Shown here in pieces: positions 11,290-62,500 of a stretch of 64,000 nt of DNA. A program made the translations under genes and the position numbers. Within the stretch, counting starts at the first letter, position 1. Every line of letters begins with the position of its first letter. The notes beneath the pieces were generated by a model. The model did not search any database and was not told where the DNA came from. It saw nothing but the letters and a program-made list of their open reading frames with translations. The DNA is from Vicinamibacteria bacterium (lineage in GTDB: Bacteria > Acidobacteriota > Vicinamibacteria > Marinacidobacterales > Marinacidobacteraceae): the NCBI GenBank assembly GCA_965232015.1, contig OZ246946.1, positions 245,562 to 309,561 on the forward strand. Direction: 5' to 3'.

Positions 11290-11540
11290 CCGCCTTGCCG
11301 GCGCGCCGGACTCCAGTCTCATGCCGGGCCCCCACCGGGAGAACTGGCGCCGGACTCCAGTCTCATGCCGGCGCGCCGGACTCCAGTCCGGCAATTTGTC
11401 GGCGCCGGCGCGCCGGCAGAGGAGTGCCGGCAGAGGAGCGCCGGCAGAGGAGCGCCGGCAGTGGCAGGCCGGCTTGGAATTGCCGGACTGGAGTCCGGCG
11501 CGCCGGCAGAGGCGCGCCGGCAGCGGAGCGCCGGCGCACC
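11290..11540. repeat. REP-like palindromic repeat cluster (about 8 units; core GCGCCGGACTCCAGTCCGGCAATT) in a divergent intergenic region
   Basis: Stem CCGGACT / AGTCCGG. Units occur in both orientations with degenerate copies. Translated ORFs here (PDWSPARRQ...) are spurious. Confidence 0.85.
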
Positions 11541-11599
11541 GCGTATCGTTGCGCGGTCATGTTCGGGACCGGAGGAGCCGTCCCGAGGGAGGACATCGA

Positions 11600-13318
11600 A
11601 TGCGGCGAACCAGCGGGAAGAAGCGGCTCGGAGCGGTGCTGACGGCGGTGGCGGGACTGAGCTGGGGGCTCGCCGGGGCGGGAGCGCGGCCGGCGGAGGC
11701 GTCGGTGATGGGCGCCAACGGGATGGTCGTGACATCGCATCCGCTCGCCGCCCAGGCCGGCCTCCGGATCCTGCAGGCGGGAGGGAACGCCTTCGATGCG
11801 GCGGTGGCGAGCGCCGCCGTGCTCGCGGTGGTCGAGCCGCTCATGTCCGGGCTCGGCGGCGTCGGCGGCTACGCCCTGATCCATGACGCCGAGACCGGCG
11901 CGGTCCGGTCGCTCGACTTCATCGGCGCCGCGCCCGCCGCCGCCGACCCGGAGGCGTTCTCGGCCGGGAGCCGACTGTGGGACCGCACCCACCCGGCGAG
12001 GGACAGCTTTCTCGCGCCGCTCGTCCCCGGCAACCTCGCCGGCTGGGCCGCGCTTCTCGAGGAGTACGGCTCCATGTCCTGGACCGAAGTGCTCGCGCCC
12101 GCGATCGGGTACGCCGAGGACGGCTTTGCGGTGACGCCGGCGGTCAGCGGCGCCTTCGGGACCAGCGGCTTCGGAGCCGACGTGGCGCGCTACCCGTACG
12201 GGGCCGGTATCTTCTTCAAGGCGGGCAAGCCGTGGCCGGTCGGCGAGATCCTGAAGCAGCCCGATCTGGCGAAGACGCTGCGGGCCGTCGCCGAGAGCGG
12301 GCCCGAGGTCTTCTACGGCGGCGCGCTCGCCGAGACCTTCGCCCGGACGTTTCGGGAGAACGGCGGCCTCCTGACCGCCGATGACTTCCGGAGCTACGAG
12401 GCCCGCTGGAGCGAGCCGCTCCGCACGACCTATCGCGGCTACACGGTGTACAGCCAGCCGCCGGGCGGCTCCGGGATGACCGTGCTCCAGACGCTGAACA
12501 TTCTCGAGCAGTTCGATGTGGCGGCGCTCGAGCACAACTCGCCCGAGTTCGTCCACCTCGTCGCCGAGGCCCTGAAACTCGCGTTCGTGGACGAGGACGG
12601 GTGGAACACCGGCAAGGACTACGCCGAGATCCCGCTCGACCGGTTGCTGTCCAAGGAGTACGCGGCGGAGCAGGCGGCGCGCATTGATCCGGACCGGGCG
12701 CAGTTCCACGCGGCGGCCCGATCGGCATCCGACCTCCCCACCGCCGTGGAGCACACCACCCACCACACGGTCGTGGACCGCGATCACAACGTGGTCACGA
12801 TCACCCAAACGCTCATGCTCCCCGCCGGAGTCGTCGTCCCCGAAACCGGCGTCATCTTCAACAACGGGATGTCCTACTTCAGCCTCGATCCCGACGACGT
12901 GAACCGGATCGAAGCGGGCCAGCGCCCCCGGTTCGTGATGAGCCCGACGATCGTGACCCGCTTCGACAGGCCGTACTTCGCGCTCGGATCGGCGGGCGGC
13001 TGGACGATTCCCCAGACGATCCTGCAGGTGCTCGTGCGCGCGCTCGATTACGACATGGACGCGGCCGCCGCCGTGGATGCGCCCCGTTTCGTCGTCCGCT
13101 ATCTCGACAACTCGATCCCCTACCTGCCCGGCACCGACCTCGTCCTCGAGAAGGACTTCTCGGCGGAGGTCGCCGAGGCGCTGAATGGGCGCGGCCATCG
13201 TCTTCGGGAGCCGGCGAACCGGCTCGGGATGCTGAACGCGATCCGGATCGTCCCCGGCTCGGGCGTCCTCTCCGGCGGGCCCGACCGACGCCGCGAGGGG
13301 CACGCGGCCGCCTGGTGA
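11600..13318 (+). CDS. ggt: gamma-glutamyltransferase
   Basis: MVVTSHPLAAQAGLRILQAGGNAFDAAVA..., the TTHHTVVD autoprocessing region, and a GGSGG C-terminal motif. GGGAGGA RBS. Confidence 0.9.
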   Translation: MRRTSGKKRLGAVLTAVAGLSWGLAGAGARPAEASVMGANGMVVTSHPLAAQAGLRILQAGGNAFDAAVASAAVLAVVEPLMSGLGGVGGYALIHDAETGAVRSLDFIGAAPAAADPEAFSAGSRLWDRTHPARDSFLAPLVPGNLAGWAALLEEYGSMSWTEVLAPAIGYAEDGFAVTPAVSGAFGTSGFGADVARYPYGAGIFFKAGKPWPVGEILKQPDLAKTLRAVAESGPEVFYGGALAETFARTFRENGGLLTADDFRSYEARWSEPLRTTYRGYTVYSQPPGGSGMTVLQTLNILEQFDVAALEHNSPEFVHLVAEALKLAFVDEDGWNTGKDYAEIPLDRLLSKEYAAEQAARIDPDRAQFHAAARSASDLPTAVEHTTHHTVVDRDHNVVTITQTLMLPAGVVVPETGVIFNNGMSYFSLDPDDVNRIEAGQRPRFVMSPTIVTRFDRPYFALGSAGGWTIPQTILQVLVRALDYDMDAAAAVDAPRFVVRYLDNSIPYLPGTDLVLEKDFSAEVAEALNGRGHRLREPANRLGMLNAIRIVPGSGVLSGGPDRRREGHAAAW

Positions 13319-13336
13319 GCCGGGTCGGCCGATCCG

Positions 13337-21047: not shown

Positions 21048-21068
21048 GCGCAGAAGTATGGAACGCTC

Positions 21069-21104
21069 CTGCCGGCGCGCCGGACTCCAGTCCGGCACCG
21101 AGAG
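21069..21104. repeat. single REP-like unit
   Basis: CTGCCGGCGCGCCGGACTCCAGTCCGGCACC. Confidence 0.8.
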
Positions 21105-29155: not shown

Positions 29156-29235
29156 TCCTAACAGAGTCATGGGCCCTCGCGACGGAGCCAGAATCGGTAG
29201 CGCCCACCGGAGTCCGTCTGACCTCCCGGTAGTGT

Positions 29236-29458
29236 CGGAGCGCCGGACTCCAGTCCCTTGCCTGCGCGCCGGACTCCAGTCGCTTGCCGGAGCGCCGGAC
29301 CCCAGTCCGGCAATTCCACGCGAGGCTGGACCTCGGTGCCTGCACTCCTCGGCCTGCGCGCCGGACTCCAGTCGCTTGCCGGCGCGCCGGACTCCAGTCC
29401 GGCAATTCCACGCGAGGCGGCTCCTCGGTGCTGGCGCTCCTCCGCCGGCGCGCCGGCA
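29236..29458. repeat. REP-like repeat cluster (about 7 units)
   Basis: Repeated GCGCCGGACTCCAGTC(C/G)... units in the same orientation. Confidence 0.85.
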
Positions 29459-30377: not shown

Positions 30378-30401
30378 ACGGATGCGACCAGCGCCTACGG
30401 A

Positions 30402-30908
30402 TCACCGGGCCGGCTTGCCGACCTTGCTCTGGTGCTGGGGACAGAGCTGCTCCAGAGGTACGCCGAGACGCTCCAGGAGAGCGCTCTGCTCGTCCCAGTC
30501 GCTGTCGGTGGCGTTAAGGATCGCTGCGCCGGCCTTCACGGCTACGGCCAGGAACTTCCGATCAGACGGATCGAGTTCGTTCTTGGGGAGCTCTGCGAAT
30601 CCTCGCGACTCGTCCGATGGCGTGATCCGTACCCACTCCGTTGCCGCGGTGTGCGATCCGCCCATGACGGCGATGCAGAATTCACTTCCAACGCCTCGGC
30701 CTGCTCGATTGTCGAGAAGTCTCTTCCGGTACTCACCCAGGACGCCCCACGACGCATCGACACAGACGATGGTCCGGCTGCGAGTCACTGCTTCGAGTCG
30801 CGCCGTGCACGCCCGTTGACAATCCAGGTCGGCGTGTGTGTCCACATCCCCACAGCTTCCCGCCTCGGCGGCGATCAGAACATTCGTGTCCACGACAACG
30901 CGTGTCAC
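30402..30908 (-). CDS. PIN-domain nuclease
   Basis: MTRVVVDTNVLIAAEAG and ATDSDWD acidic residues. GTG start overlaps the ATPase stop (GTGA). Confidence 0.8.
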   Translation of the reverse strand: MTRVVVDTNVLIAAEAGSCGDVDTHADLDCQRACTARLEAVTRSRTIVCVDASWGVLGEYRKRLLDNRAGRGVGSEFCIAVMGGSHTAATEWVRITPSDESRGFAELPKNELDPSDRKFLAVAVKAGAAILNATDSDWDEQSALLERLGVPLEQLCPQHQSKVGKPAR

Positions 30909-33792: not shown

Positions 33793-33809
33793 CTGGCGCC
33801 CCGGCTCAC

Positions 33810-42870: not shown

Positions 42871-42882
42871 CCTCTTACGCAA

Positions 42883-45588: not shown

Positions 45589-45620
45589 CGTCCGGCGCGG
45601 CCGCTGGCGAGCGCGTGGAA

Positions 45621-45808
45621 CGCCGGACTCCAGTCCGGCAATTTGCAGCCGGCGCTCCGCCCTCCAGTCCCCTGCCGGCGCGCCTTGCCGGCGCGCCGGA
45701 CTCCAGTCCGGCAATTTGCTGCCGGCGCTCCGCCCTCCAGTCCCTTGCCGGCGCGCCGGACTCCAGTCCGGCAATTTGCAGCCGGCGCTCCGCGCTGCCG
45801 GCGCGCCG
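45621..45808. repeat. REP-like repeat cluster (about 6 units)
   Basis: Repeated GCCGGACTCCAGTCCGGCAATTTGC units between convergent genes. Confidence 0.85.
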
Positions 45809-45838
45809 CCCCCGGATCAAGCCGAAGCCACCCCGAAC

Positions 45839-48631: not shown

Positions 48632-49046
48632 GGCATTCCGTCCTGTTCCATCAGCCGAACCATTTGACGGATATGGCGGGCTGCTCCCCGGTGTCTGTCC
48701 ACAGCCGCCCGGTCGGTATATCCGGTCCCGGAATACCGGTTGTGGTGCGACCAATCCGAGAAAGGGCTTGCGGGCGGGAGAGCTCGCACGTATGCGGCGG
48801 CTCTATGCTCGCTGAACCGCTTGAACTTCGCCCACAAGGCCTGGATGTGCTTGCGGTGGCGATGTTCCAGAGGATGACCGGAGGCGTTCAGGGGCATACC
48901 GTGCCTTGCCATGACCGCCTTGAGCCCGCATTCGGCGCTGAGGCCGAAGAGCTGGTCCGCATTTCCCCATCGCTGGCGGGCGTACAGCAGCTCGGCATCT
49001 TCCCAGTGCCTCCCTTGCGCCTCCGGGAAACTGGCTCTCAGATTCA
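48628..49046 (-). CDS. 139-aa hypothetical protein translationally coupled to the ParA-NACHT protein
   Basis: GTG start with GGAGGAG RBS. MNLRASFPEAQGRHWEDAELLYARQRWGNADQLFGLSAECGLKAV...EHRHRKHIQALW. No confident family assignment. The track ORF's N-terminal extension runs into a repeat and is spurious. Confidence 0.5.
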
Positions 49047-49113
49047 CGGATCGGGCTCCTCCTGCGGGTGCCGGGGCCAAGCGGCTACTCGCAACAGTAG
49101 CGCGGCCCTGCCC

Positions 49114-49180
49114 GCGCGCCGGACTCCGCCGGTTCTCCCGGCCAGTTCTCCCGGTGGGGGCGGGGCGGGGCCCGGCAATG
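49114..49180. repeat. variant REP / CCGGTTCTCCCGG-family repeat block
   Basis: CGCGCCGGACTCCGCCGGTTCTCCCGGCCAGTTCTCCCGGTGGGGG, preceded by hairpin GCTACTcgcaacAGTAGC. Confidence 0.6.
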
Positions 49181-49204
49181 CAGCGCACCAGCCGGCGGCG
49201 CCGC

Positions 49205-49696
49205 CTACACCGCGCGCTGCACCGACCGCCGCGCCACCAGCCAGGTGATGAGCCCGCCGATCAGCGTCGTCCACAGGATCAGCCAGAAGCCGACCTGGGC
49301 GAGGAAGCCGCCATAGAACCACTGCGCCCACACACCCATCTCGGCCTCCATCTCAGGCGGGTAGGCGTCGTAGTGCGTGCCCCAGTCGCCGAGCGTGGCG
49401 AACAGCATGATGAGGATCACCGGGATCCGCGCCCCCAGCCCGTACACGAAGTTCACGCAGAGGGCCGACTTGAACCCGGCCTCCCCCGCCGCGGCGAGCT
49501 TCCGCCCGAACCACACGGCGAAGATGGGCGCCAGCCAACTGATCCCGATGATCGCCCCCGTGCCTCCGGCCTCCCGGTTCACCAGGAAGTCGGGCAGTCC
49601 GCCGAGCGCGCCGAGCAGCCGCACCAGCGTCACGGCGAGCGAGATCCAGACCGCGGCCTGGACCAGCCGCCATGCAGAAGAACAAGATGTAGCCAC
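49205..49696 (-). CDS. hypothetical polytopic membrane protein
   Basis: GTG start. 4-5 TM helices. The overlapping alternative frame is Arg-rich junk. Confidence 0.55.
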   Translation of the reverse strand: MATSCSSAWRLVQAAVWISLAVTLVRLLGALGGLPDFLVNREAGGTGAIIGISWLAPIFAVWFGRKLAAAGEAGFKSALCVNFVYGLGARIPVILIMLFATLGDWGTHYDAYPPEMEAEMGVWAQWFYGGFLAQVGFWLILWTTLIGGLITWLVARRSVQRAV

Positions 49697-49813
49697 GGAA
49701 ACCGTCCTCGGGCTGGCGGGGCGAGAGCCGTCGCGGACGATCCACGCCGGCCGCCCTCGCCGCGCCCCAATTCTGGCAGACTAACGATCCATCCCGAAGT
49801 GAGGCGCCCTCCA

Positions 49814-51775
49814 ATGCATTTCTCTTGTTGTCGCATCCTCTTTCTTGTGGGTTCCGCAGGGATCGCAGCCGGCTTCGCAGCTTCCGGCTGCGCCGCGCCG
49901 GCCCCCCGGTTCGACGAGGCCCGGCTCCTCGAGCACATCTCGACGCTCTCCTCGGACGAATTCGGAGGCCGCGCCCCCGGCTCGCCCGGTGAGGAGAAAA
50001 CCGTCGAGTTTCTGACCCGCGGCTTCGCCGAGGCGGGGGTCGAGCCCGGCAACCCGGCGCTCGACGGCGCGGCGGCGTGGACCCAGCCGGTCCCGCTCGT
50101 CGGCTACGGCGCGACCACGATGGAGGCTTCCTCGGATCCGGGCGGCGGCTGGACCCCCGGCGAGGCGTTCGTCGCGTGGACGCGCCGCGACGAGCCGGTG
50201 ACGGAGGCGTCGGGCGAGCTGGTGTTCGCGGGCTACGGCGTTCAGGCCCCCGAATACGGCTGGGACGACTTCGGGGACGCCGACCTCGACGGCAAGATCA
50301 TCGTGGTCCTCGTGAACGACCCGCCCGGCGACCACCACTTCGGTGGCGACGCGATGACCTACTACGGCCGCTGGACCTACAAGTACGAGCAGGCGCTCGC
50401 CGCCGGAGCTCTCGGCGCGCTGATCGTCCACGAGACCGGCCCGGCGGGGTATCCGTGGGAAGTCGTCCAGGGCTCGTGGACCGGCCCCCAGTTCGATCTC
50501 CGCGCCCCGGCCGGGGACGATGCGCCCGAGCATCTCCCGGTCCAGGGCTGGATCCATCTCGACCTCGCGACCTCGCTCTTCGCGGCGGCAGGCGCGGATT
50601 TCGCCGAGGCGAAGGCGCGCGCCGCCGACGCCGGGTTCGTCCCCGAGCCGCTCGGCGTCACCGCCGAGTTTCGGATCGAGACCACCCGCACCGAGCTCGA
50701 ATCGAACAACGTGATCGCCCGGATCCCGGGAACCGAAGCGCCCGACGAGACGGTGATCTACACCGCCCACTGGGACCACCTCGGGACCGCCGAAGGCATG
50801 GAGGGCGACAACATCTTCAACGGCGCATTCGACAACGCCACCGGGACGGCGGGTCTCCTCGCCCTCGCCGAGGCGTTCATGGCGGAGGGCGCGCCGCGCC
50901 GCAGCATCGTCTTCCTCGCCGTGACGGCAGAGGAGCAGGGGCTCCTCGGCTCACGCCACTACGCGGACAACCCGCTCTACCCCCGGGCCGACACGGTGGC
51001 GGCGCTGAACATGGACGGTCTGAACGTGTGGGGCCCGACGTCCGACATCACCGTCGTCGGTCTCGGCCAGTCCGATCTCGACGACGTGGCCGCGGAGGTC
51101 GCCGCCGGGCTCGGACGCACGCTCAGCCCCGACCCGGAGCCGGAGAAGGGCTATTACTACCGCTCCGACCACTTCGAGTTCGCCCGGGTGGGGATCCCGG
51201 CGTTCTATCCGGACACCGGCACCGACTTCATCGGTCGCAGCCCCGACTACGGCATGGAGGTCCGCGACGCCTACGTGGCCGAGCGCTACCACAAGCCCGG
51301 TGACGAAGTGCTGCCCGAGTGGGATCTCGGCGGCATGGTGACGGATCTCGAGTTCCTCTACCGCATGGGCCGGAGGCTCGCGGAGGACGACGACTGGCCC
51401 GCCTGGTCTCCCACCAGCGAGTTCCGCGCCCGCCGCCGGCGCGCCGGACTCCAGTCCGGCACCGAGCGTCCCGGCCAACCGGCGCCTCCCTGCCGGAGCG
51501 CCGGACTCCAGTCCGGCACCGAGCGTCCCGGCCAACCGGCGCCTCCCCCCCGGAGCGCCGGACTCCAGTCCCTTGCCGGCGCGCCGGACTCCAGTCCGGC
51601 AATTCCACGCCGGCGCACGCTGCGGGAGCGCCGGACTCCAGTCAGGCACCGGTCAAGAGGGTTGCGTGCCGGACTGGAGTCCGGCGCTCCAGGGCGCTCC
51701 ATCGCGACCGCGTCGGGGCGGCAGGATTTGAACCTGCGACCCCCTGATCCCGAACCAGGTGCTCTGCCAGACTGA
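49814..51775 (+). CDS. M28-family peptidase (PA domain + M28 aminopeptidase), lipoprotein
   Basis: Lipobox AASGC. Motifs HWDHLG, NGAFDNATG, FLAVTAEEQGLLGS, RSDHFEF. The 3' end has no in-frame stop until 51773, reading through the REP cluster into tRNA-Pro, so the true C-terminus is uncertain. Confidence 0.7.
   Translation: MHFSCCRILFLVGSAGIAAGFAASGCAAPAPRFDEARLLEHISTLSSDEFGGRAPGSPGEEKTVEFLTRGFAEAGVEPGNPALDGAAAWTQPVPLVGYGATTMEASSDPGGGWTPGEAFVAWTRRDEPVTEASGELVFAGYGVQAPEYGWDDFGDADLDGKIIVVLVNDPPGDHHFGGDAMTYYGRWTYKYEQALAAGALGALIVHETGPAGYPWEVVQGSWTGPQFDLRAPAGDDAPEHLPVQGWIHLDLATSLFAAAGADFAEAKARAADAGFVPEPLGVTAEFRIETTRTELESNNVIARIPGTEAPDETVIYTAHWDHLGTAEGMEGDNIFNGAFDNATGTAGLLALAEAFMAEGAPRRSIVFLAVTAEEQGLLGSRHYADNPLYPRADTVAALNMDGLNVWGPTSDITVVGLGQSDLDDVAAEVAAGLGRTLSPDPEPEKGYYYRSDHFEFARVGIPAFYPDTGTDFIGRSPDYGMEVRDAYVAERYHKPGDEVLPEWDLGGMVTDLEFLYRMGRRLAEDDDWPAWSPTSEFRARRRRAGLQSGTERPGQPAPPCRSAGLQSGTERPGQPAPPPRSAGLQSLAGAPDSSPAIPRRRTLRERRTPVRHRSRGLRAGLESGAPGRSIATASGRQDLNLRPPDPEPGALPD
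51431..51690. repeat. REP-like repeat cluster (about 7 units, both orientations)
   Basis: Repeated GCGCCGGACTCCAGTCCGGCACCGAGCGTCCCGGCCAACCGGCGCCTCCC superunits. Confidence 0.85.
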
Positions 51776-51786
51776 GCCACGCCCCG
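51713..51786 (-). tRNA. tRNA-Pro (anticodon CGG)
   Basis: Reverse complement CGGGGCGTGGCTCAGTCTGGCAGAGCACCTGGTTCGGGATCAGGGGGTCGCAGGTTCAAATCCTGCCGCCCCGA. Anticodon loop TTCGGGA is identical to E. coli tRNA-Pro(CGG). Confidence 0.85.
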
Positions 51787-51879
51787 TCGGTCGAAGTCGC
51801 GGATTCTAGCCGGGGGCCGACCTGCGGCCGCGCGCGAACGCCAAACCGTGGGCTCGGTCCGCTGCCGACGGCGAACCGC

Positions 51880-52758
51880 TCAGCGGGACAGCCAGCGGAA
51901 GATGACTCTCGTCGCCTCCGCCAGCCCGGCGCCCAGACCGATCAGGGCGGCGCGCCGCCACCAGTCGGCGCGCTTCCTCCGGCGTGTCTCGCGCGCCATG
52001 ACAAGGGCCTCCAGCCGGTCGAAGCGGCGGAGGAGCTCCTGGATGCCTTCACGCAGCTCCGCCCGTTCGGCGCGAGCCTCGGCGAAGCCCTTTTCCCGCT
52101 CGGCGCGAGCCTCGGTGAAGCCCTTTTCGCGCTCGGCGCGAGCCTCGGCGAAGCCCTTCTCGCGCTCGGCGCGAGCCTCGGCGAAGCCCTTCTCGCGCTC
52201 GGCGCGAGCCTCGGCGAACCCGTCCTCCATGTCGGTTCGCGTCTTGGCGTCGGTCCTCTGGAGGTCGGACTTCGCTTCCGAGATGCGGTCAGCGAGCCGC
52301 TTCTCCATTGCCTCGCGCTCAGCGCGGGCCTCGGCGAAGCCCTTGTCCCGAGCAGCGCGGGCCTCGGCGAAGCCGCGCGCCACATCCGATCGGGTCTGGG
52401 CGTCGGACCTCTCGAGATCAGCCTTGGTCTCCGAGATGCGCTCGGTCAGCCGCTTCTCCGTCTCGTGTCGGTCCGCCCGGGCCTCCTCGCGCTGGTCGCG
52501 CGCCATGCGGACGGCGAGACCGAGGAATCCGCTCTCGGTGACGGGCGCCTCCGTCGGCCGGCCGGGCGGCGGAGCAGGCGGAGATGCGCCTGGATGCTCG
52601 GCGCCAGCCACCTTCGGCGACATGGACGACGAACTGGAGGGGCTCATGCGGGTCGCGCGCCTCGCGGGCGACGCGGATTCAGTGTAGGCCGTCTCCGAAG
52701 AGCCCGCAACCGATCCGGACGCCGGGGCGGCGCCAGGAGGTGCTTCTCGATGCTTCAT
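51880..52758 (-). CDS. coiled-coil protein with five 11-residue tandem repeats (KGFAEARAERE) and a C-terminal TM anchor
   Basis: 33-bp DNA tandem repeats at 52069-52230. C-terminus WWRRAALIGLGAGLAEATRVIFRWL. S/P-rich N-terminus. Start could be the internal M at 52506. Confidence 0.55.
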   Translation of the reverse strand: MKHREAPPGAAPASGSVAGSSETAYTESASPARRATRMSPSSSSSMSPKVAGAEHPGASPPAPPPGRPTEAPVTESGFLGLAVRMARDQREEARADRHETEKRLTERISETKADLERSDAQTRSDVARGFAEARAARDKGFAEARAEREAMEKRLADRISEAKSDLQRTDAKTRTDMEDGFAEARAEREKGFAEARAEREKGFAEARAEREKGFTEARAEREKGFAEARAERAELREGIQELLRRFDRLEALVMARETRRRKRADWWRRAALIGLGAGLAEATRVIFRWLSR

Positions 52759-53097
52759 GCTTTCTTCTTCTGGCGGGTCTTGGCGGGGTCAAGATCGGGA
52801 GCCGGACCGGACGCGCCCGCCTCCCGGAAAGAGAGACGGAGGACCGCGGCGTCCCAACCATCGGCCCCGCCAGACCGACGCACCATGGCCTGGAACCCGC
52901 CGATCGAAGCCCGGAGAGGGGCCGGGCCAACCCCCCGAAATCCATGCTTGACATCCCCGCCCGTACTGTGTTGAAGTAAACGCCCGTGCTCGCACTCCGG
53001 CAGTCGTCCCCTTGGATGTACTACCCCGGCGCGAGCCAACTCCTTCTACTGGTTCCCGCCATGCGCAGCATCAAGCCGTCTCCCGACGTTTTGACCT

Positions 53098-53125
53098 TGC
53101 CCCCCGAAGCCTTCCTGCCTATACT
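53098..53125 (+). promoter_or_regulatory. candidate sigma70-like promoter (TTGCCC -16- TATACT) in a low-GC patch upstream of the first FN3 lipoprotein gene
   Basis: The region 52930-53200 is conspicuously AT-richer than the genome. Confidence 0.3.
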
Positions 53126-53296
53126 TTCTCGGCAGTTGGCCCGTGGGCTGTGTGCGCACCGGGCCGCCCCGTCCTACGGGAGGTAGAAATGATTTTCACG
53201 AGACGGCGCCTTGCCCTCTCCGGATCCCCACCGGGATCTTCGGACCAGGCTGCAGACGCGGTCCTGTCCATCAACGCCCTACAGGAGGTAGGCGAA

Positions 53297-55900
53297 ATGA
53301 CGCAGTTCACGAGGAAGTCGGTCCCCCGCGGGCTGACCCTCCTCCTTGCCCTGTTCCTGGGTGCCGGTCTCGTGCTCTCGGGATGCGGTGAGGACGAAAC
53401 CCCCGCCCCGGCGCCGGCTCCGGCCCCTGCGCCACCCCCTGCCCCCGAGCCTGAGCCCGAACCGGAACCCGAGCCAGAGCCCGAGCCGCCCGCTACGCCT
53501 ACCGGCCTCATGGTTTCGGAGACCACCGAAACCTCCATCACCTGGACCTGGGACGCCGTCGAAGGCGCGATCGGTTACGCAGTGCAGGCCAGCGCGGATC
53601 AGGTGTTCGACGACTCGGACATGATCCACCCTGCGGCCGAGACCACCTTCACCGCTGCGGACCTCGAGCCGGGCACCACCATGTCGGTCCGCGTGGCCGC
53701 CGCGGGAGCGCTCGACGGGTCGCTGAACAGCGCGTGGACGACCCACATCACCGCCACGTCGGCGGTGCCTCCTCCGGTGGTGATTCCGGTCCCGAGCGGC
53801 TTCATGGCCGAGGGTGGAGACGGCTCCATCACGTGGAGCTGGGACGCCGTTGAGGGCGCCGACGGGTATGCGATCCAGGTCAGCTCGGACGAGATGTTCG
53901 ATGACATGGACGCGACGACCTACACGATGGAGACCTCGCACACCGTCGAGGATCTCGGTTACTCCGAGAGCAGGTTCGCGCGAGTTGCGTCCACTGCTGG
54001 TGAGGGCGACGACATGATGATGAGCATGTGGAGCACCCACATGACGGGCATGTCGGCCGCCGCAGCTCCCCTGCCTCCGCCTTCCGTGACGTTCTCCCTG
54101 CCGGACGGTCAGAGCCACTTCATGGTCGCGGACGACGACGATGACGAGGCCACGGCCATGGCTTGGATCAACCCCAAGACCGTCGTGGAGTCGGACTCCA
54201 CCGCGATCATCACTCCGATGTTCGTGGACGGCGCCAACGGGGTCCATGTGGGCGCCAGTGACGACAACATGCCGTTCACCTACGTGGGAGCCGAGGACAA
54301 CTGGGAAATGCTCCAGAGCGCCGTGCTCGACGGTGGCGCGACCTTCATGGTCCAGCGGACCACGATGGGCGCCAACCAGGAGATGGAGCCGAGCAACGAT
54401 GTGTCCTACTACACCTGCGGTCCGTTCGAGTGCGCGGAGGGAGAGGACGCCCCGGATCTTTCGATCGCCAACTCCAAGGCCTGCACGGCTTGGGATCCGA
54501 TGGTGGAGATCCAGGTCGGCAAGGTGGACAACGACGTCATCGTTCCCGATGACGGTGAGGAAACCGCGGACGGCTTGAACACGAACGACGGTATCGACTT
54601 GGGCATCGTCACCAGCTCCAGTCTCGAGATGAATGTCAAGAGCGTCTTTTCTGGTGTTGAGGGAGGCACGAACACCTCTTCCACCGTTGAGGCCGCGAGC
54701 GGCAGCAACAAGACCCTCGAAGTGACGGCCGTCAACGGGGTGATCCGGATCGATGGAGACAACCTGGACACCGATGCCGACGAGGAGGACTACGTGGTCT
54801 GCGACAACGACTACACATTGGAAAATGTGAGCAGTAAGGCAGACCGGCCTGTGGGCTGCTTCCGGCTGATCGGTCCCGGCGCCATGGGCAGGGACGCTGC
54901 CAAGGGCCCTGACTACTTGTCCGGCTGGAGCATCGAGCTGAGTCCCGTGGACGGCGACGTGACTTGGGGCAACGTTGACTGGGAGGACGATCCGTTCGAG
55001 GATCTCGAGTGCGGCGCCGCCGATCCGATCATGGTGGCCGACCATGTGGATGTCTGCTCCATGTTCGAGGCCGAGGTGGATGGCGCCACCGCCCGGGGCT
55101 GGACCCCTGAAGTGGTGTTCGACGGGACGAGCAATCAGGTCACCATGTGGCGCGCCAGCACCCGCGCTGCCACTGACCACGAGGCGATGTTCAAGACGCT
55201 CTGGTTCGACGACAATCTGAATGGCAAGATCAAGAATGACGGGACCCTTGCCCGCGCACGCCCCGCGCCTGCGGATGGGGCTACTGCCAACGCCATGCAC
55301 GATCTCTACGATCAGAATGAGAACGATGGGAACCTTGAGGTGATCTGGGAGCACCTGACCGACTCCGATGGGGACCTGATCAGCGCCGTGGGCGACCTCG
55401 GCAAGGCTGACCTTCTGAGCGACTCGGACAACAAGAGTACTGTCGACGATGAGCGCACGATTTTGGTGGAGACGTGCACCGGAGACGGGGCGACTTGGAC
55501 GCCGGCAAGTTACACCGGTACCGACCCCAGTGCCGGTTGTGTCGGGGGTACCTACAACACCACCGGCGACTTGGCGATCAAGACCAACCCGGACGGCAAC
55601 GCGGACAACTATGTCGATACTGCCCCCTCGGTCGTCTTCTCTGACTTCCGCGGATGCAGCGAGGATGACGGCGGCGACGATGCCGACGGTTCCGAATGCG
55701 ATGCGACGTGGGTCCACGATGTCACGATTCTGTTCGCGGACGGCACGTTCGGCTGCAGCACGACTCGAGATGTGACCATCACGTGCGAGTGGGACGCTGA
55801 CGGCGGAATGGCCCAGGGCCGTAACGCTCTGCCGAACAGCTTTGACGGAGAGGGCGATGACAGCAATCTCGACAACTTCCTCAAGTGCACCGCCAACTAG
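53297..55900 (+). CDS. secreted lipoprotein with (PE)n linker, two FN3-like domains and a large acidic C-terminal domain
   Basis: Signal/lipobox LLLALFLGAGLVLSGC. AGGAGG RBS. PAPAPAPAPPPAPEPEPEPEPEPEP linker. FN3 pattern PTGLMVSETTETSITWTWDAVEGAIGYAVQ. About 60% GC. An in-frame upstream ATG at 53189 (MIFTRRR...) also has an RBS. Confidence 0.7.
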   Translation: MTQFTRKSVPRGLTLLLALFLGAGLVLSGCGEDETPAPAPAPAPAPPPAPEPEPEPEPEPEPEPPATPTGLMVSETTETSITWTWDAVEGAIGYAVQASADQVFDDSDMIHPAAETTFTAADLEPGTTMSVRVAAAGALDGSLNSAWTTHITATSAVPPPVVIPVPSGFMAEGGDGSITWSWDAVEGADGYAIQVSSDEMFDDMDATTYTMETSHTVEDLGYSESRFARVASTAGEGDDMMMSMWSTHMTGMSAAAAPLPPPSVTFSLPDGQSHFMVADDDDDEATAMAWINPKTVVESDSTAIITPMFVDGANGVHVGASDDNMPFTYVGAEDNWEMLQSAVLDGGATFMVQRTTMGANQEMEPSNDVSYYTCGPFECAEGEDAPDLSIANSKACTAWDPMVEIQVGKVDNDVIVPDDGEETADGLNTNDGIDLGIVTSSSLEMNVKSVFSGVEGGTNTSSTVEAASGSNKTLEVTAVNGVIRIDGDNLDTDADEEDYVVCDNDYTLENVSSKADRPVGCFRLIGPGAMGRDAAKGPDYLSGWSIELSPVDGDVTWGNVDWEDDPFEDLECGAADPIMVADHVDVCSMFEAEVDGATARGWTPEVVFDGTSNQVTMWRASTRAATDHEAMFKTLWFDDNLNGKIKNDGTLARARPAPADGATANAMHDLYDQNENDGNLEVIWEHLTDSDGDLISAVGDLGKADLLSDSDNKSTVDDERTILVETCTGDGATWTPASYTGTDPSAGCVGGTYNTTGDLAIKTNPDGNADNYVDTAPSVVFSDFRGCSEDDGGDDADGSECDATWVHDVTILFADGTFGCSTTRDVTITCEWDADGGMAQGRNALPNSFDGEGDDSNLDNFLKCTAN

Positions 55901-55918
55901 GATGCGGCGTCTCCTGAA

Positions 55919-55973
55919 GTCCGGCTGAGTTCGGACCTCAGAGAGCCCCGGGGTCTTCGGACCTCGGGGCTCT
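55919..55973 (+). terminator. tandem GC-rich hairpins downstream of FN3 gene 1 (GTCCG-8nt-CGGAC; AGAGCCCCG-14nt-CGGGGCTCT)
   Basis: Perfect stems; weak U-tract. Confidence 0.3.
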
Positions 55974-56100
55974 TGGCGTGTACGCCGGCTATGGAGCGCG
56001 TGTCCTCACCAGTCCTCCCGGCCAGTTCTCCGGGTGGGGGGTGGGGCGGGTGGAGTGCGGCACGGTCCCAGGGGGAGCACGGGACTCCAATCGGGCACGG

Positions 56101-56163
56101 TGTCAATGGCTGTCAATGGCCATCGAAAATGCGACACTTCTGGCCGCCGAAAATGCGACACTT
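56101..56163. promoter_or_regulatory. two tandem direct-repeat pairs: TGTCAATGGC x2 and CGAAAATGCGACACTT x2 (8-nt spacer) in a low-GC patch
   Basis: Exact repeats. The arrangement is typical of direct-repeat transcription factor binding sites. Confidence 0.3.
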
Positions 56164-56563
56164 TGGGGGTCGAGGCTCGTCGCGGGAAGCTCGCCCCGTT
56201 CATTGGCGTGGAGGCGCGATGCGGCCGAGCCCGGGGTCGTTCGGGGCTGCGTTCGGGCTTGCGGTCCAGGGCGGATCGGTATCCCTCGCCGCGGGGCCCG
56301 CTTCGGCGGGGCGCCTCGGAGACGAGGCGGTCGGCTCGTGTGTCGGGTGCGGGGCGGTCAACTCGCGCTCGCCCGCGGCGAGGGAAGGATCCGGCCCGTT
56401 CCGGGTCGCAACGCCGAGGGAGGCGGAGCAGCGCGAGCGTCCGGGCGGTGCGGGGTCGCCTGGAACGGCCCGGGCGGCGTTGGCGCGCCAGCCGGGGCCC
56501 GATCGCAGGCGAGGTTGGGCCGGGCGTCCGTACGTCGAACTCCGCCCGGGAGGATCGGGGACC

Positions 56564-56600
56564 GCCGGCGCGCCGGGCTCCAGTCGGGCAATTGCCGGCC
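56564..56600. repeat. degenerate REP-like unit
   Basis: GCCGGCGCGCCGGGCTCCAGTCGGGCAATTGCCGGCC. Confidence 0.6.
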
Positions 56601-56879
56601 GGGCTGGGCCGCGCAGAGAGAGGTCAGTTGGGTCCCCGTTAGCGAACGGTTGCGCGCCGGCCGGCGGCGCTGCGAGCCCCTGATAGGCTAGACGCCAAGG
56701 CATGGGGGAACCGCCCGACGGGTTGGTCCTCGCATGTCGCCGCAGGGGCCAGAGCGATCGGCCGCCCGCGATGACCGGTAGCGGGCCGCGGGCTGAGTGT
56801 GGTACCATGCGGCTGATAGATGTGTCCTGACATGCGCGGGCAGAGCCTGCGCCGCAACACCGGCCGGGAGGTAGGTGAC

Positions 56880-59447
56880 ATGAAGTCGCTCACAGGCAAG
56901 TTTTCGTCCGTCCGCGGATGGGCTTTGCTGCTGATCCTGTTCCTCGGCGCGGGCCTCATGATGGCGGCCTGCGGGGATGACGAACCGGCGACCACTCCGG
57001 TGCCGGCTCCGGCCCCCGAGCCCGAGCCCGAGCCCGAGCCCGATCCGCCGGCTGTGCCGACTGGCCTCCGCATCGCCGCCATCGGTCAGGACTTCATCGA
57101 GTGGATCTGGACGCCGGTGGGGAACGTGAGCGGCTACGACGTGCAATACAGCGTCAACGAGGTGTTCACCGACGAGGACGAGATCATCGCCCGGACGGCC
57201 GAGCAGGTCACCTACCGCCGGGAGGGCCTCGAACCGGAGGCTAGCGGGTCGGTGCGGGTGCGGTCCGCCGCCGGAACCGGCGACGATCGGATCACGAGCG
57301 GCTGGTCCACCCACGTGACCGGGATGGCGATGGCCGTTCCGGTGGCGCCCCCGACTCCGACCGGCCTCGCGGTTTCGGCGACGGAGACTTCGATCACCTG
57401 GACCTGGACCGCCGCCCCGGGAGCGGAGGGCTACGTGGTGCAGATCAGCGAGGATGAGGTGTTCGAGACGATGTTCGAGGGGGCGGACCACTACGCGGTG
57501 ACCCGCGAGACGTCCCACACGATCGCCGGGCTGGAGGCGGAGACGACCCGGTATGCGCGGGTGGCGGCCGGGGTGCTGACGGGCGCGGTTCCTTCGCTGG
57601 ATCCGGGCGACTACCTGCTCAGCGCGTGGACGATCCACGCGACGGGGATGACGGAGGCGGCGGCGCCGGAGAGGCCGCCAGCCCCGGCGAACGTGCGGCT
57701 GAGGATGCGGGGCTCCGACTACCTCGAGTGGACGTGGGACGCGGTCGAGGGGGCGAGCGGCTACCAGAGCCAGTTCAGCGCCAGTTCGACCTTCCCGAGC
57801 GGGCAGGCGGGCAGCGAGATCCACCAGGGGATGGCCAGCACCACCCGCCGGGTCGCGAACCTGGACGCGGAATCGGACGGCCACCTCCGGGTGCGGACTT
57901 ACACGGGGACTCTGACCGAGCCGACCTACGGGGACTGGAGCGACGGCCATCGGGCGACGACCGCCGAGCCGCCGCCAGCGGTGGCGCTCGACGCTCCCGA
58001 GGGCCTGCGGGGCTCGGCCGAGACTGCGACTTCGATCACGCTCACGTGGGACGAGGTGGACGATGCCGACGCCTACGAGGTGCGGCAGCGGGAGCCTGGC
58101 GGCGCGTGGTCTGACGCGAGCTGCGGATCGGCGACCGCGGACAACGAGGTTGCCGACGAGGAATGCGTCGCGAGCGGCCTGGACTCGGGCACCGACTACG
58201 ACTTCGGGGTTCGGGCGCTCCCGGCGAACAACGACAGGGCGCACAACGCCAGCACGTGGAGCGACACGCTGGAGTCGAGCACGACCGGCACCTCCACCAC
58301 GACCCCACCCCCAACCACCTCCGGCGGCGAGAGCGGACCGCTCAACATCAGTTGGGACAGCAGCGGCGGAACGATCACCTGGTATTGGGACCAGGCCGCA
58401 GACCGAACCTCCGACTACGAGAGATGGAAGTCTGCAGCGTCTGCGGACGGCGTGGATGCCGCCATAAAGTGTCCCGCAGCCAGCGCCGCCGTTTGGGCCG
58501 CCGGCGGCGGGACTCGCACCCTGGACGGAGACACGCGGGAGCCCCAGGAGGCTGCCACGCCTGGCAGCGCGTACCTCCTGTGCGTTCGGTCCGTCAAGGA
58601 AAACACGCGGAGCGCGGTCTCCTACGCCTGGGCGATCGTCCCTACCGACATCACGGGCGGCGAGCCCAGCGCAGAATCCAGACAGGTGACGACCGCCATC
58701 AGCTTTGGCATCACTCTCGATCCGGGCTTCACCTACCAGCTTCGCCGCGTTTCCACGAGCGTCAACGACGATACCTTCGACGCGCGCGACTGCAGCGGTG
58801 GCACGGCGCTCCGCGATGAGGTCAGCGATTTCCCGAGTCTCCCACTGGGGTCCTACGAGGTGGGAGCCCTGTCTCCATACACTCGCTATGGGCTGTGCTA
58901 TCGCGCCACAAACGACGCCGGCGCCTCGGAGTGGCAGTTCACGGAGAACGGCGTCCTGACTCTTCCTGGCCGGCCGAGCGCACCTGTCGCGGCGGTCAGT
59001 TCCATCGCGCATGATGCGACGTCCCGCGATGCCGTGTGGAACGTGGCGACTAGCGGAAACGCCCGGGTGCCGCGGGCTCACGAGGCATACGACGTCAAAG
59101 TGATCTCGATGCGCTCAGCCAACCCCTACGTCAGCGGTGACACCGGCCCGAGGAGCCCTGACCTGTCGCTAGCGGATTGTGAAGCCACCTCGGCGCGCAC
59201 GAATACGACATCCGAAGACGTTGCGCCGGGAGATCGGAGCAACAATCAGAGGGGATTCACCGTGACACACGATGTGGAGGGGCCCGCAACGCCAACGGCA
59301 GAGGAGCCGAACATGGACCAGGACTACCGGGTCTGCGTTCGCGCTCACCTGGGCGGCGGCACGCACCAGGGGGCCGCCGACGCGCGAAAGGGCCCGTGGG
59401 TCCTTGGTTCGCTCGTCGTGAAGAGGGACGCTCCTGCGTCGAACTAG
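56880..59447 (+). CDS. secreted lipoprotein with (PE)n linker and about six FN3-like domains; paralog of 53297..55900
   Basis: MKSLTGKFSSVRGWALLLILFLGAGLMMAAC lipobox. RBS GGGAGG. Repeated PTGL...SITWTW... FN3 modules. Confidence 0.7.
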   Translation: MKSLTGKFSSVRGWALLLILFLGAGLMMAACGDDEPATTPVPAPAPEPEPEPEPDPPAVPTGLRIAAIGQDFIEWIWTPVGNVSGYDVQYSVNEVFTDEDEIIARTAEQVTYRREGLEPEASGSVRVRSAAGTGDDRITSGWSTHVTGMAMAVPVAPPTPTGLAVSATETSITWTWTAAPGAEGYVVQISEDEVFETMFEGADHYAVTRETSHTIAGLEAETTRYARVAAGVLTGAVPSLDPGDYLLSAWTIHATGMTEAAAPERPPAPANVRLRMRGSDYLEWTWDAVEGASGYQSQFSASSTFPSGQAGSEIHQGMASTTRRVANLDAESDGHLRVRTYTGTLTEPTYGDWSDGHRATTAEPPPAVALDAPEGLRGSAETATSITLTWDEVDDADAYEVRQREPGGAWSDASCGSATADNEVADEECVASGLDSGTDYDFGVRALPANNDRAHNASTWSDTLESSTTGTSTTTPPPTTSGGESGPLNISWDSSGGTITWYWDQAADRTSDYERWKSAASADGVDAAIKCPAASAAVWAAGGGTRTLDGDTREPQEAATPGSAYLLCVRSVKENTRSAVSYAWAIVPTDITGGEPSAESRQVTTAISFGITLDPGFTYQLRRVSTSVNDDTFDARDCSGGTALRDEVSDFPSLPLGSYEVGALSPYTRYGLCYRATNDAGASEWQFTENGVLTLPGRPSAPVAAVSSIAHDATSRDAVWNVATSGNARVPRAHEAYDVKVISMRSANPYVSGDTGPRSPDLSLADCEATSARTNTTSEDVAPGDRSNNQRGFTVTHDVEGPATPTAEEPNMDQDYRVCVRAHLGGGTHQGAADARKGPWVLGSLVVKRDAPASN

Positions 59448-59719: not shown

Positions 59720-60143
59720 TTCGCATGTACGGGCTGCACGGCGACGGGGTCAAGGCGATTCGAAGAGGCGGCGCTCTCCGGGTCGTGAGGAAACGCGGTT
59801 CCGCCTGTTTCCGGTCGGAAACAGTGGGGACGGCGGGGCCTGTACAACGACCGAGTCCGCGACCCACTGCGCCCTGTTCCCCGCGGTCGGTTCCTGGATG
59901 CCTCAGCCGCGTCTCGCGCTGATCGTGCCCGGTGCCTAATCGCCGGAACCCGCCGGCGCCACCTCCACATGCGTACGCCCCAGCGCGTCCCCGTTTGCCC
60001 AGTCCAGGAAGTCGAAGCTCGGGCGGGATCCCGAAGCGGCCGGAACTCAAGCCGCAAGGCTACTCCCGCCCGTGGCGACGCACCTACCCTAGGCACGGGG
60101 GGGCGGCCGAAGCCGCCCCCGCTACCAGTCCTGTTGATGACAG

Positions 60144-62435
60144 CTACTCGGTCTTCTGTCTGATTTCCGAAGAGTCGCTGATGACCCAAGGACCGGCGCG
60201 CCAACCGCCTTCAGCCTTTACTCGAACACACAGCTGCACCCTCCGGTCGTCAAGGTCCGGATCGTCAAGCTCAGGGCGTGCGAATTCGCCGGACTCGACT
60301 GTGATTCCTTGCGGGTTGTCCGTCGCAGAAATCAGGGCGCTCTCGCTCGGGTCGAATCCCGGAGTGCTAAGGGTACCCGCGCTGCACGCAGCCTGTACAT
60401 CCCTGGAGGGAACGCTCGTAACAGTCCTGAGTGCGGTACCGGTATCGCTGTCGTGATCGTACTTTTCGCGATAGCTGAGAGTTCTCGCGTCGAACTCAGC
60501 GCCATTCCTCGGGACATCCCGCCTACTGCGGACGGGCAGCGTCCACACTACCTTGCTCGCGGTGTCGTGATCCAGTGTCGTTCTCGAACTGTCCACGACA
60601 GGCCTCGGCGGGGCGGCTGGAAGAGTAGTGACCTGGCCTGTAGTTGCCACCCACGATGTCTGCCCTTTGGCGTTGTGGTACCGCATGCAGAGGGAGTACC
60701 TCGTGAAAGATTGAAGACCTTGGCTGAAGGGGACGTCAACATCTACCAGTGGGACGTCTGTGTCGCCCTGAGCAACGACCGCTCCCGAGGCACACGCACT
60801 CCCCAACTCGCTCGCACTTGCCGGGACGTTGTCGCGTCCGGGTGTGGCTATCGTGCGGAGGTCATAGTTGAAACCGCCCGCGATATTCGCAACAGTCCAT
60901 TGAACCGATGTGGTTCGACTTCCGTCCTCCCGGTCAGTGAAGGTGCCGGCAGCGGGGAGGGCCGGAGTCGTAATCGCCCACGCGAACGAAACATCATCCT
61001 CTTCGTCGTGTGGCCTCACGCACAGCAAACGAGTGTTTCCCGGCTCCAAACTCAGGCTAGTCAAAGTGTGAGAGGTCTGTGCGGAGTTGTATCCGGCCGT
61101 GTTGGCGTCTGCTGGCCAGGTCACCGCGGTACCGGTACAGGGGTTTGAGGAGTCGCTATAGGTGGTTGCAGTAGAGACTACGAAGTCATACCGCCCCTCT
61201 CCAACACGATCCCAGATCCAAGTGATGCTAGTGGCCGTACTCTCCCAACGGACGTTCAGGTTTCCGGAGCCGCCGCCGGTGGTCGGGGGTGGAGTGGTCG
61301 TGGAGGTGCCGGTGGTGCGCGACTCCAGCGTGTCGCTCCACGCGCTGGCGTTGTGCGCCCTGTCGTTGTTCGCCGGGAGCGCCCGAACCCCGAAGTCGTA
61401 GTCGGTGCCCGAGTCCAGGCCGCTGGCCACGCATTCCTCGTCGGCAACCTCGTTGTCCGCGGTCGCCGATCCGCAGCTCGCGTCAGACCACGCGCCGCCA
61501 GGCTCCCGCTGCCGCACCTCGTAGGTGTCGGCATCGTCCACCTCGTCCCAGGTGAGCGTGATCGAAGTCGCAGTCTCGGCGGAGCCCCGCAGTCCCTCGG
61601 GAGCACCGAGCGCCACCGCTGGCGGCGGCTCGGCGGTCGTCGCCCGATGGCCGTCGCTCCAGTCCCCGTAGGTCGGCTCGGTCAGAGTCCCCGTGTAAGT
61701 CCGCACCCGGAGGTGGCCCTCCGATTCCGCGTCCAGGTTCGCGACCCGGCGGGTGGTGCTGGCCATCCCCTGGTGGATCTCGCTGCCCGCCTGCCCGCTC
61801 GGGAAGGTCGAACTGGCGCTGAACTGGCTCTGGTAGCCGCTCGCCCCCTCGACCGCGTCCCACGTCCACTCGAGGAAGTCGGAGCCCCGCGTCCTCAGCC
61901 GGACGTTCGCCGGGGCTGGCGGCCTCTCCGGCGCCGCCGCCTCCGTCATCCCCGTCGCGTGGATCGTCCACGCGCTGAGCAGGTAGTCGCCCGGATCCAG
62001 CGAAGGAACCGCGCCCGTCAGCACCCCGGCCGCCACCCGCGCATACCGGGTCGTCTCCGCCTCCAGCCCGGCGATCGTGTGGGACGTCTCGCGGGTCACC
62101 GCGTAGTGGTCCGCCCCCTCGAACATCGTCTCGAACACCTCATCTTCGCTGATCTGCACCACGTAGCCCTGCGCTCCCGGGGCCGCGGTCCAGGTCCAGG
62201 TGATCGAAGTCTCCGTCGCCGAGACCGCGAGGCCGGTGGGAGTCGGGGGCGCCACCGGAACGGCCATCGCCATCCCGGTCACATGGGTGGACCAGTCGCT
62301 CGTGATCCGATCGTCGTCGGTTCCGGCGGCGGACCGCACCCGCACCGACCCGCTAGCCTCCGGTTCGAGGCCCTCCCGGCGGTAGGTGACCTGCTCGGCC
62401 GTCCGGGCGATGATCTCGTCCTCGTCGGTGAACAC
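60144..62435 (-). pseudogene. 5'-truncated inverted paralog of the FN3 lipoprotein at 56880..59447 (no signal peptide, lacks first FN3); break-point at a REP element
   Basis: The first 480 residues are near-identical at the DNA level to 57135-58315. Homology ends exactly at the REP unit at 62468. The remaining C-terminus is divergent but FN3-like. Only a GTG start and no signal peptide. Confidence 0.55.
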
Positions 62436-62467
62436 CTCGTTGACGCTGTATTGCGGCCAGCGCGCCT

Positions 62468-62500
62468 CTGCCGGCGCGCCGGACTCCAGTCCGGCAATTC
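62468..62500. repeat. REP-like unit at the duplication break-point
   Basis: CTGCCGGCGCGCCGGACTCCAGTCCGGCAATTC. Confidence 0.8.

Follow-up and report, generated by a model that had tools for sequence, protein, structure and literature searches.

The closest described relatives of the repeats treated here, a family of short hairpins scattered over a 64-kb stretch of contig OZ246946.1 from a Vicinamibacteria bacterium (hereafter the window, meaning the whole stretch of DNA that was analysed), are REP elements (repetitive extragenic palindromes), and in particular those that accompany REP-associated tyrosine transposases (RAYTs) of subclass 2.4. This subclass, equivalent to Bertels group 4, is characterised by a stem whose three lowest base pairs are G-C, by REPs lying in frame within tnpAREP, by the RAYT motifs NH[IFV]H, WQ and YIxNNP, and by a scattered occurrence across phyla (Quentin et al. 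2018, PMC6006769). In a second group of known elements, intragenic REPs and Rickettsia palindromic elements supply in-frame peptide segments to housekeeping proteins, including their C-termini, and clusters of REPs encode stretches of 43-82 aa, so intragenic and C-terminal REPs as such are already known (Di Nocera et al. 2013, PMC3733652). The REPs of E. coli (TnpAREP, subclass 2.2, PDB 4ER8) resemble ours as short palindromes, GC-rich and extragenic, that carry a guide tetranucleotide on their 5' side, are highly repeated and cluster in composite arrays, with a Y1 HUH transposase as the associated enzyme, but they belong with a different RAYT subclass, have a different sequence and are longer and imperfect as palindromes. 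What is more, the bacterial interspersed mosaic elements (BIMEs) of E. coli alternate REP orientation, whereas in the window 21 of 24 units lie on one strand. Finally, the REPINs (REP doublets forming hairpins) of Pseudomonas fluorescens SBW25, attributed to work of Bertels and Rainey in 2011, are reportedly inverted REP doublets, of which the window also has examples (11366-11508 and 51625-51690), although these are a minority there, where direct tandem arrays and single units prevail. The repeats of the window fit the REP elements of the subclass 2.4 type and form an undescribed family of a known class.

That the hairpins form a real and abundant family, as an earlier note on this DNA had held, is seen from their excess over chance. 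Namely, the 15-nt core CGCCGGACTCCAGTC has 24 matches in the window (at most 2 mismatches), at 8-10 loci, where 0 are expected; the 24-mer GCGCCGGACTCCAGTCCGGCAATT has 14 matches (at most 3 mismatches) as against 0.00 in dinucleotide-preserving shuffles, and the stem pattern CCGGACTNNAGTCCGG has 16 as against 0.05 expected by chance. The core is matched at 11304-11500, 21078, 29241-29399, 39466, 45583-45768, 51442-51686, 56571 and 62477, with an additional partial copy at 49100-49140; a match at 31939, within an AAA-ATPase gene, is probably due to chance and, if it is set aside, every locus is intergenic or overlaps gene ends. A full unit reads foot(4)-C-GCCGGAC-TCCA-GTCCGGC-A-tail, where the tail is AATT(T/C) or CCG and GCCGGAC-TCCA-GTCCGGC makes a GC-clamped stem of 7 bp with a 4-nt loop (about -8.5 kcal/mol when folded as single-stranded DNA). 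In all full units the stem is closed by GCC...GGC, with three G-C pairs at its bottom. The copies comprise 12 perfect hairpins, 5 degenerate ones and 6 half-units, each of the latter being a 5' half in which CGCCGGACTCCAGTC is followed by NCTTGCCGGNG and after which a further unit always comes. Among 24 units, the foot tetranucleotide is GGCG in 11, GGAG in 7 and TGCG in 2, and the remaining 4 have other feet. The loci, by position and strand, are as follows:

11287-11535, no strand assigned: REP cluster in a divergent intergenic region, with 5' half-units at 11304 and 11348 and full units at 11370-11396 (+) and 11478-11504 (-)
Within 11287-11535, no strand assigned: 14-nt tandem repeats of GCGCCGGCAGAGGA, part of the same cluster
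21068-21101, + strand: single full unit with foot GGCG and tail CCG, flanked by genes for a beta-lactamase-family protein (-) and a Dyp peroxidase (+)
29233-29456, + strand: REP array upstream of accD with 5 units, three of them 5' halves and two full; a 92-nt repeat in 2.1 copies, 90% identical
39462-39487, + strand: degenerate unit GGAGCGCCGGACTCCAGTACGGCC forming the last gatB codons, an 18-nt in-frame insertion that adds GAPDSS, as aligned to relatives L125 and L126
45574-45599, - strand: degenerate unit CGCGCCGGAC-GCTA-GTCCGGGCG, which gives the aconitase its last 4 codons (GRPD) and a TAG stop
45617-45817, + strand: REP array between convergent genes, with full units at 45621, 45694 and 45754, two degenerate 5' halves, and periods of 73 nt and 60 nt
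51431-51690, no strand assigned: 7-unit REP array in place of the native 3' end of the M28 peptidase gene and abutting tRNA-Pro, 6 units on + (one a half-unit) and 1 on -, with a 57-nt repeat and an inverted pair at 51625-51690
56564-56600, + strand: lone degenerate unit GCGCCGGGCTCCAGTCGGGCAATT, on the upstream side of an fn3/DUF4992 gene
62460-62500, + strand: single full unit with foot GGCG and tail AATT, 16 bp past the edge of a 1218-bp inverted duplication

Units occur in both orientations, as the earlier note had said, though very unevenly, 21 core matches falling on + and 3 on -. Each locus has a + strand gene as a neighbour, and the bias can be assigned neither to the direction of replication nor to that of transcription (the G+C content of the window is ~70% and its GC skew weak). 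Likewise confirmed is the presence of units in spacers, both divergent (11287-11535, between a CBM9-like gene on the - strand and a gamma-glutamyltranspeptidase gene on the + strand) and convergent (45617-45817, between aconitase on + and a ParA-like gene on -). The housekeeping genes of the window include those for gamma-glutamyltranspeptidase, ProRS, a Mur ligase, AccD, GatB, a uridine-kinase-like PRK, MqnA, CoaX, aconitase, the M28 peptidase and tRNA-Pro. The stem sequence turned up in no paper in a full-text search of the literature, Rfam matched nothing in the window other than tRNA-Pro, and a protein search with an 88-aa peptide encoded by a REP array gave no match at E <= 0.1.

Turning to the architecture of the arrays, three of them show a clean higher-order tandem period, of 57 nt (2.6 copies, 51426-51571), 73 nt (45621-45757) and 92 nt (2.1 copies, 29260-29456), at 90-96% identity, which indicates block duplication. 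At the same time, the distances between units are irregular (26, 34, 44, 57, 60, 73 and 92 nt). Arrays of 6-8 units, as they were first described, are an overstatement, because the only one to reach 7 units is that at 51442-51686, while elsewhere there are 3-5, many of them 5' half-units. As regards clustering of the BIME/REPIN type, there are two inverted pairs, yet 21 of 24 units lie on one strand, in direct arrays. Folded as DNA (-73.3 kcal/mol, z = -10.8), the doublet at 11366-11508 would give a REPIN-like hairpin of 143 nt whose arms measure 31 bp, and the pair at 51625-51690 another long hairpin (-33.5 kcal/mol, z = -8.0).

Could such arrays be CRISPR arrays or miniature inverted-repeat transposons (MITEs)? 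Like CRISPR, they consist of short palindromic repeats in clusters, with short non-repeat stretches between them. However, they have no regular period and no unique spacers, the supposed spacers being themselves repeated; the units are palindromic, at four loci they are dispersed singletons, and Pfam scans of the window show no cas genes. CRISPR was rejected on these grounds, in agreement with the earlier note, which had called the repeats REP-like and, as irregular and palindromic, not CRISPR, and to which we can add the short GC-clamped hairpin and its foot tetranucleotide. As for MITEs, these were rejected as well, the units being hairpins of 24-44 nt around which no terminal inverted repeats (TIRs) with target-site duplications are seen. 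Taken together, an identity of the arrays as either CRISPR or MITEs is extremely improbable.

The link to RAYTs comes from other genomes. The 20-mer CGCCGGACTCCAGTCCGGCA, scanned across one genome per species, matched at least 44 stretches, and among the matches listed are metagenome-assembled genomes (MAGs) labelled Acidobacteria, Caldilineaceae, Verrucomicrobiota, Flavobacteriales/Bacteroidota, Gemmatimonadetes and Gammaproteobacteria. The Acidobacteria MAG OH_CBB_232 has the canonical GTAG foot in front of the core, and there the core occurs as tight inverted doublets (GTAGCGCCGGACTCCAGTCCGGCAcgtGCCGACCTGGAGGTCGGCGCTAC), comparable with the REPINs of SBW25; the Caldilineaceae MAG has GGGAG or GGGAA as its foot. 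In a Flavobacteriales MAG (locus L007), the 20-mer stands on either side of a RAYT open reading frame (ORF), with one further copy within it. This ORF has the motifs HVHVLF and YIHNNPVKAGL, and its protein is recognised by Pfam Y1_Tnp (4.4e-10) and by NCBIfam NF047646, REP-associated tyrosine transposase (98.1 bits, cutoff 80), aligns with E. coli TnpAREP over the HUH and Tyr motifs, and belongs to a family of 3467 proteins at E <= 1e-10 that bears the name RayT in several sources.

This association is not confined to a single genome. When 80 metagenomic loci of the same RAYT clade were compared with control intervals shifted by 2 kb (n=47), a repeated GC-clamped hairpin was found within 250 nt of the RAYT gene ends at 61 of the 80 loci as against 3 of the 47 controls. 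At 27 of the 80 loci, hairpins of the strict frame CGCC-N3-4-loop-N3-4-GGC, whose loops include CTCCAG and CCCCAG, lie beside or inside the RAYT gene, and DNA copies of the hairpin inside RAYT matches were seen at 18. The stems vary by lineage (GGGC/GCCC, AGGC/GCCT, GAGC/GCTC, AAGC/GCTT, GGAC/GTCC and others), while clamp and loop are constant; the window repeats have the frame foot-C-GCC-N4-TCCA-N4'-GGC-A, a frame of the REP type that accompanies subclass 2.4. In the RAYT proteins, the hairpin is read as REP-encoded in-frame inserts (AGLESG, ATLERG, AKLELG, ANREIG), which share one conserved internal site before VWHREYFDRY (alignment A1) and occur at the termini as well. We assign the window repeats to the subclass 2.4 type (PMC6006769), with which they share the GCC...GGC stem bottom, a foot tetranucleotide 1 nt 5' of the stem and distribution over many phyla; in the very clade that carries the identical 20-mer, REPs sit next to the RAYT genes and in frame within them, and the protein motifs (NHVH, W[HQ], YIHxNP) agree with the published table. 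On the other hand, the window differs from subclass 2.4 in its foot, which is GGCG or GGAG and not GT[AG]G, in its short 7-bp stem, which is not of the 'long' or 'double-foot' form, in its prevalence of direct arrays with half-units, and in that the loci of the lineage examined so far contain no RAYT. As for a cognate RAYT, which the earlier note had proposed to seek, none is present in the window or in the loci of relatives that are syntenic with it; in other genomes, the same 20-mer or the same frame flanks RAYT genes.

Two features of these data were considered as possible novelties and rejected. REP copies inside RAYT genes have already been described for subclass 2.4 (PMC6006769), and recurrence of an identical 20-mer across phyla is expected, and needs no horizontal transfer, because the conserved frame leaves only four free stem positions, or 256 possible variants. 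We also note that at two loci on unrelated contigs (L076, 4296-7871, and L083, 4341-7910) a complete RAYT domain lies in frame inside a DNA-methylase-like ORF of ~1190 aa, and that in one database source a RAYT homologue goes by the name 'restriction enzyme/putative DNA methylase'. Separately, a 'Gemmatimonadetes' MAG (L023) and an 'Acidobacteria' MAG (L026) from one study (jk18x bins) are identical in sequence around the REP match, which suggests a shared organism or mis-binning.

How stable are the repeats over time? Syntenic loci of relatives were reached through GatB homologues and include two sister strains (L129 and L130), whose GatB is near-identical and whose contigs are of 3.81 Mb, one genome with a GatB identity of at least 90% (L128), the MAG JAJEAO01 labelled Acidobacteria bacterium with 87% (L125), and two with 78% (L126 and L127). 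In the spacer downstream of aconitase, where the window has 3 full units and 2 half-units, GGAC-type units number 1 in L129 and 0 in L130. The arrays that precede accD are different in each of the window, L129 and L128. L125 and L128 have mostly other stems (GCTC/GAGC, GGTC/GACC) with the foot TATGGAG, and L126 has no intergenic units at all. The differences of 0, 1 and 3 units, the other stems and the empty spacers of L126 therefore show turnover of the family on the time-scale of both strains and species. A further example is a 790-nt composite cluster (12090-12883) that separates the kinase gene from mqnA in L125 and is missing in the window. Its content is made up of REP variants, accessory modules of a kind described below and GCCGGCGCGCCGG palindromes; in the window, the kinase gene and mqnA overlap by 4 nt.

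The mechanism that we consider likely is one in which a RAYT encoded elsewhere seeds units via single-stranded DNA, arrays change by duplication and deletion of blocks, and units at gene ends rewrite coding sequence. In particular, the RAYT, a Y1 HUH transposase presumably encoded somewhere in the ~3.9-Mb genome, would recognise the hairpin together with its 5' foot in single-stranded DNA and thereby seed copies at new intergenic sites, dispersal thus owing to the RAYT and not to recombination alone. At such sites, blocks of several units would next be duplicated in tandem or deleted, so that the arrays expand or contract locally. With units landing on or inside the last codons of genes, 3' ends would occasionally be rewritten.

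A number of observations weigh against this mechanism. The foot of the window units, GGCG or GGAG in 18 of them, is never the canonical GT[AG]G, while GTAG is the foot in OH_CBB_232 and (TAT)GGAG that in L125 and L128; degenerate feet are, however, known in some REP families (PMC3733652). The arrays are mostly direct tandems with many 5' half-units, unlike the alternating BIME/REPIN pairs of the classical case. Three of the 8 loci lie in divergent, promoter-containing regions, although REPs are reported to favour unidirectional and convergent spacers (PMC3733652). Neither the 64-kb window nor ~110 kb of syntenic sequence from the relatives contains a RAYT gene or pseudogene. Finally, RAYT-driven mobilisation of REPs in vivo has, to our knowledge, been demonstrated for no family.

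One can argue from the same observations that the repeats are orphans. That is, they would descend from REPs of the RAYT type but no longer be mobilised by any transposase, the foot having decayed from GTAG/TATGGAG to GGCG, and all change being due to slippage, unequal recombination and gene conversion. The non-canonical foot and the clean tandem periods of 57, 73 and 92 nt agree with this, as does the finding of a RAYT in none of the lineage's fetched loci. Moreover, REP clusters occupy matching spacers in the relatives (upstream of accD, downstream of aconitase, and between the M28 peptidase gene and tRNA-Pro), and therefore remodelling in place is suggested. However, there are also lineage-specific insertions at sites that are empty in relatives, namely the 18 nt in gatB and the one unit downstream of aconitase in L129 where L130 has none, and therefore a mechanism of seeding is needed; what is more, the examination for a RAYT covered ~64 kb of ~3.9 Mb. 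All considered, we regard orphan status as unlikely. A related reading is that the guide foot has switched from GTAG/TATGGAG to GGCG/GGAG and that the family is still active, either through a RAYT of altered specificity or through RAYT-free spread by block duplication and recombination. In either case its activity would still be enough to make sister strains differ and to remove a stop codon; we regard this reading as rather improbable. Seeding by a RAYT, followed by local change in blocks, thus remains our preferred reading.

By comparison with the relatives, the 3' ends of three genes in the window (gatB, aconitase and the M28 peptidase gene) have been remodelled by repeats, in keeping with the earlier proposal that units invade gene ends. 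In gatB, DNA alignment to L125 and L126 identifies a half-unit as the in-frame insertion of 18 nt and +6 codons, so that the protein ends in ...LEGAPDSSTA in the window, L129 and L130 and in ...LEAD, ...LDAD, ...LGNR or ...LEGG in relatives. The same unit, at 39463, had been thought to sit in place of the start codon of the downstream kinase gene. This part of the earlier account does not hold: the unit is an insertion in the 3' end of gatB, and in the window as in L125 and L126, with or without the unit, the gatB stop overlaps a CTG (as CTGA) and no ATG, GTG or TTG is present upstream of the kinase P-loop (VAIAGASCTGKT). The conservation of this arrangement in three genomes suggests that the uridine-kinase-like gene starts at a CTG overlapping the gatB stop (junction at 39485-39540 in the window) and is translationally coupled to gatB. 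Automatic annotations place the start of this gene 3' of the P-loop.

In the case of aconitase, the four final codons (GRPD) and the TAG stop lie within a degenerate unit on the - strand, while the proteins of relatives end without GRPD, as ...LAE* (L125), ...LASS* (L126) or ...LAG* (L128). The most extensive change is that of the M28 peptidase gene. In L128 and L129 its stop is kept (...EFRARRL(Q/E)DRP(E)*) and a REP array comes after it; in the window, the native 3' end and stop are replaced by the array, and the frame, as the earlier note had correctly read, runs through the array into tRNA-Pro. Its first stop is found at 51773-51775, inside the antisense tRNA-Pro gene (51712-51786, - strand), giving ~114 extra codons in which AGLQSG, APDSSP and AGLESG are repeated. 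The loss of the stop codon appears to be strain-specific, unless it stems from a deletion in the assembly, and the tail of ~114 aa is a prediction from the reading frame. These cases resemble intragenic REPs and Rickettsia palindromic elements in that REP-encoded C-terminal segments occur in housekeeping proteins. They differ from them in that the effects in the window are at gene 3' ends, where GatB gains 6 codons, aconitase gains 4 together with a new stop, and the M28 peptidase loses its stop, with ~114 array-encoded codons reaching into an antisense tRNA gene.

Another argument one can make is that the units are primarily selected regulatory elements, acting as terminators or attenuators, as stabilisers of mRNA 3' ends or as protein-binding sites, and that their distribution reflects function and not mobility. 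Several clusters do lie directly 3' of + strand genes in sense orientation (gatB, aconitase and M28 peptidase), cluster positions are shared with relatives, and roles of this sort are documented for E. coli REPs (PMC6006769, PMC3733652). Units might act as terminators or mRNA stabilisers. However, intrinsic terminators as candidates were rejected: the hairpin is followed by AATT(T/C) or CCG and not by a T-tract, and a terminator scan of 39000-57000 reports no unit. What is more, divergent promoter regions hold three of the loci, near-identical strains differ in their number of units in one spacer (0 to 3), and the same spacers are empty in a relative with 78% GatB identity; this variation and these empty spacers therefore argue against an essential conserved function. 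That regulation should be the primary explanation of the family is, in our view, very unlikely.

Apart from the REP units proper, the window contains a shorter accessory module, CCCCCACCGGGAGAACTGG, with 8 occurrences as against 1.2 expected, which sometimes adjoins the 5' side of a unit (as at 11329-11347). In its form (G)CCCCCACCGGGAGAACTG(G), of 18-19 nt, it is seen at 590-609, 42720-42738, 11329-11347, 49128-49160 and 56018-56040, and in the relatives it sits between the REP foot and the hairpin. Three composites of partial, degenerate or relic units with this module were noted:

49100-49160, no strand assigned: partial unit GCGCGCCGGACTCC... joined to two accessory modules CCAGTTCTCCCGGTGGGGG
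55985-56050, no strand assigned: degenerate unit with a TATGGAG foot, the foot of the relatives, followed by an accessory module
62519-62555, - strand: relic with the GCTC/GAGC stem variant joined to an accessory module (GCTCTGGAGAACCCCACCGGGAGCGCC), the identical composite occurring in L125

The module is also carried by a MITE-like element of ~226-245 bp, present in two copies (437-662 and 42648-42873) that are 74% identical by BLAST, with blocks of up to 93%, and it behaves as an independent mini-insertion because its internal position differs between them. The TIRs of this element are ~22 nt long (CAGSCTGTGGACAAAGTCACGCG...CGCGTGACTTYATCCACAGSCTG), the right end of copy 1 has a perfect DnaA-box-like TTATCCACA, and one copy adjoins tRNA-Leu while the other is upstream of aconitase.

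The earlier note had also placed a unit at the break-point of a duplication. The duplication is inverted (61240-62454 versus 58360-57143; 1218 bp at 96.6% identity) and lies within two fn3/DUF4992 paralogues (56820-59447 on + and 60144-62435 on -; a third fn3 gene is at 53012-55900), and its sequence suggests a recent duplication or gene conversion. A unit (62470-62500) does begin 16 bp beyond its edge; the juxtaposition is real, and a causal link would be conjecture. Two other features of the window may be recorded. At 52060-52464, tandem repeats of 33 nt (4.6 copies, 96% identity) and of 153 nt lie inside an ORF without a Pfam match (51880-52758, - strand). The region 30400-34700, with a lower GC content (0.63-0.65), an AAA_15/AAA_21/DUF3696 ATPase and an N6_N4 DNA methylase, is likely a defence or restriction-modification islet, because it is absent from L126.

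What do these findings mean? In the first place, they add an undescribed REP family from an uncultured, ~70%-GC, Acidobacteriota-like lineage. The comparison of sister strains provides a clean and dated view of REP dynamics, with 0, 1 and 3 units in one and the same spacer and a gain of 18 nt in gatB, to which one may add an aconitase stop supplied by a REP and an M28 peptidase stop lost in a strain-specific manner. For the annotation of such genomes, caution is advised with ORFs that run through REP arrays, with kinase starts and with false CRISPR calls. The family is also a small data point on the diversification of REP feet and stems and opens no new mechanism. That said, if the foot has indeed switched, the lineage would be a natural test of whether a transposase is needed for REPs to spread.

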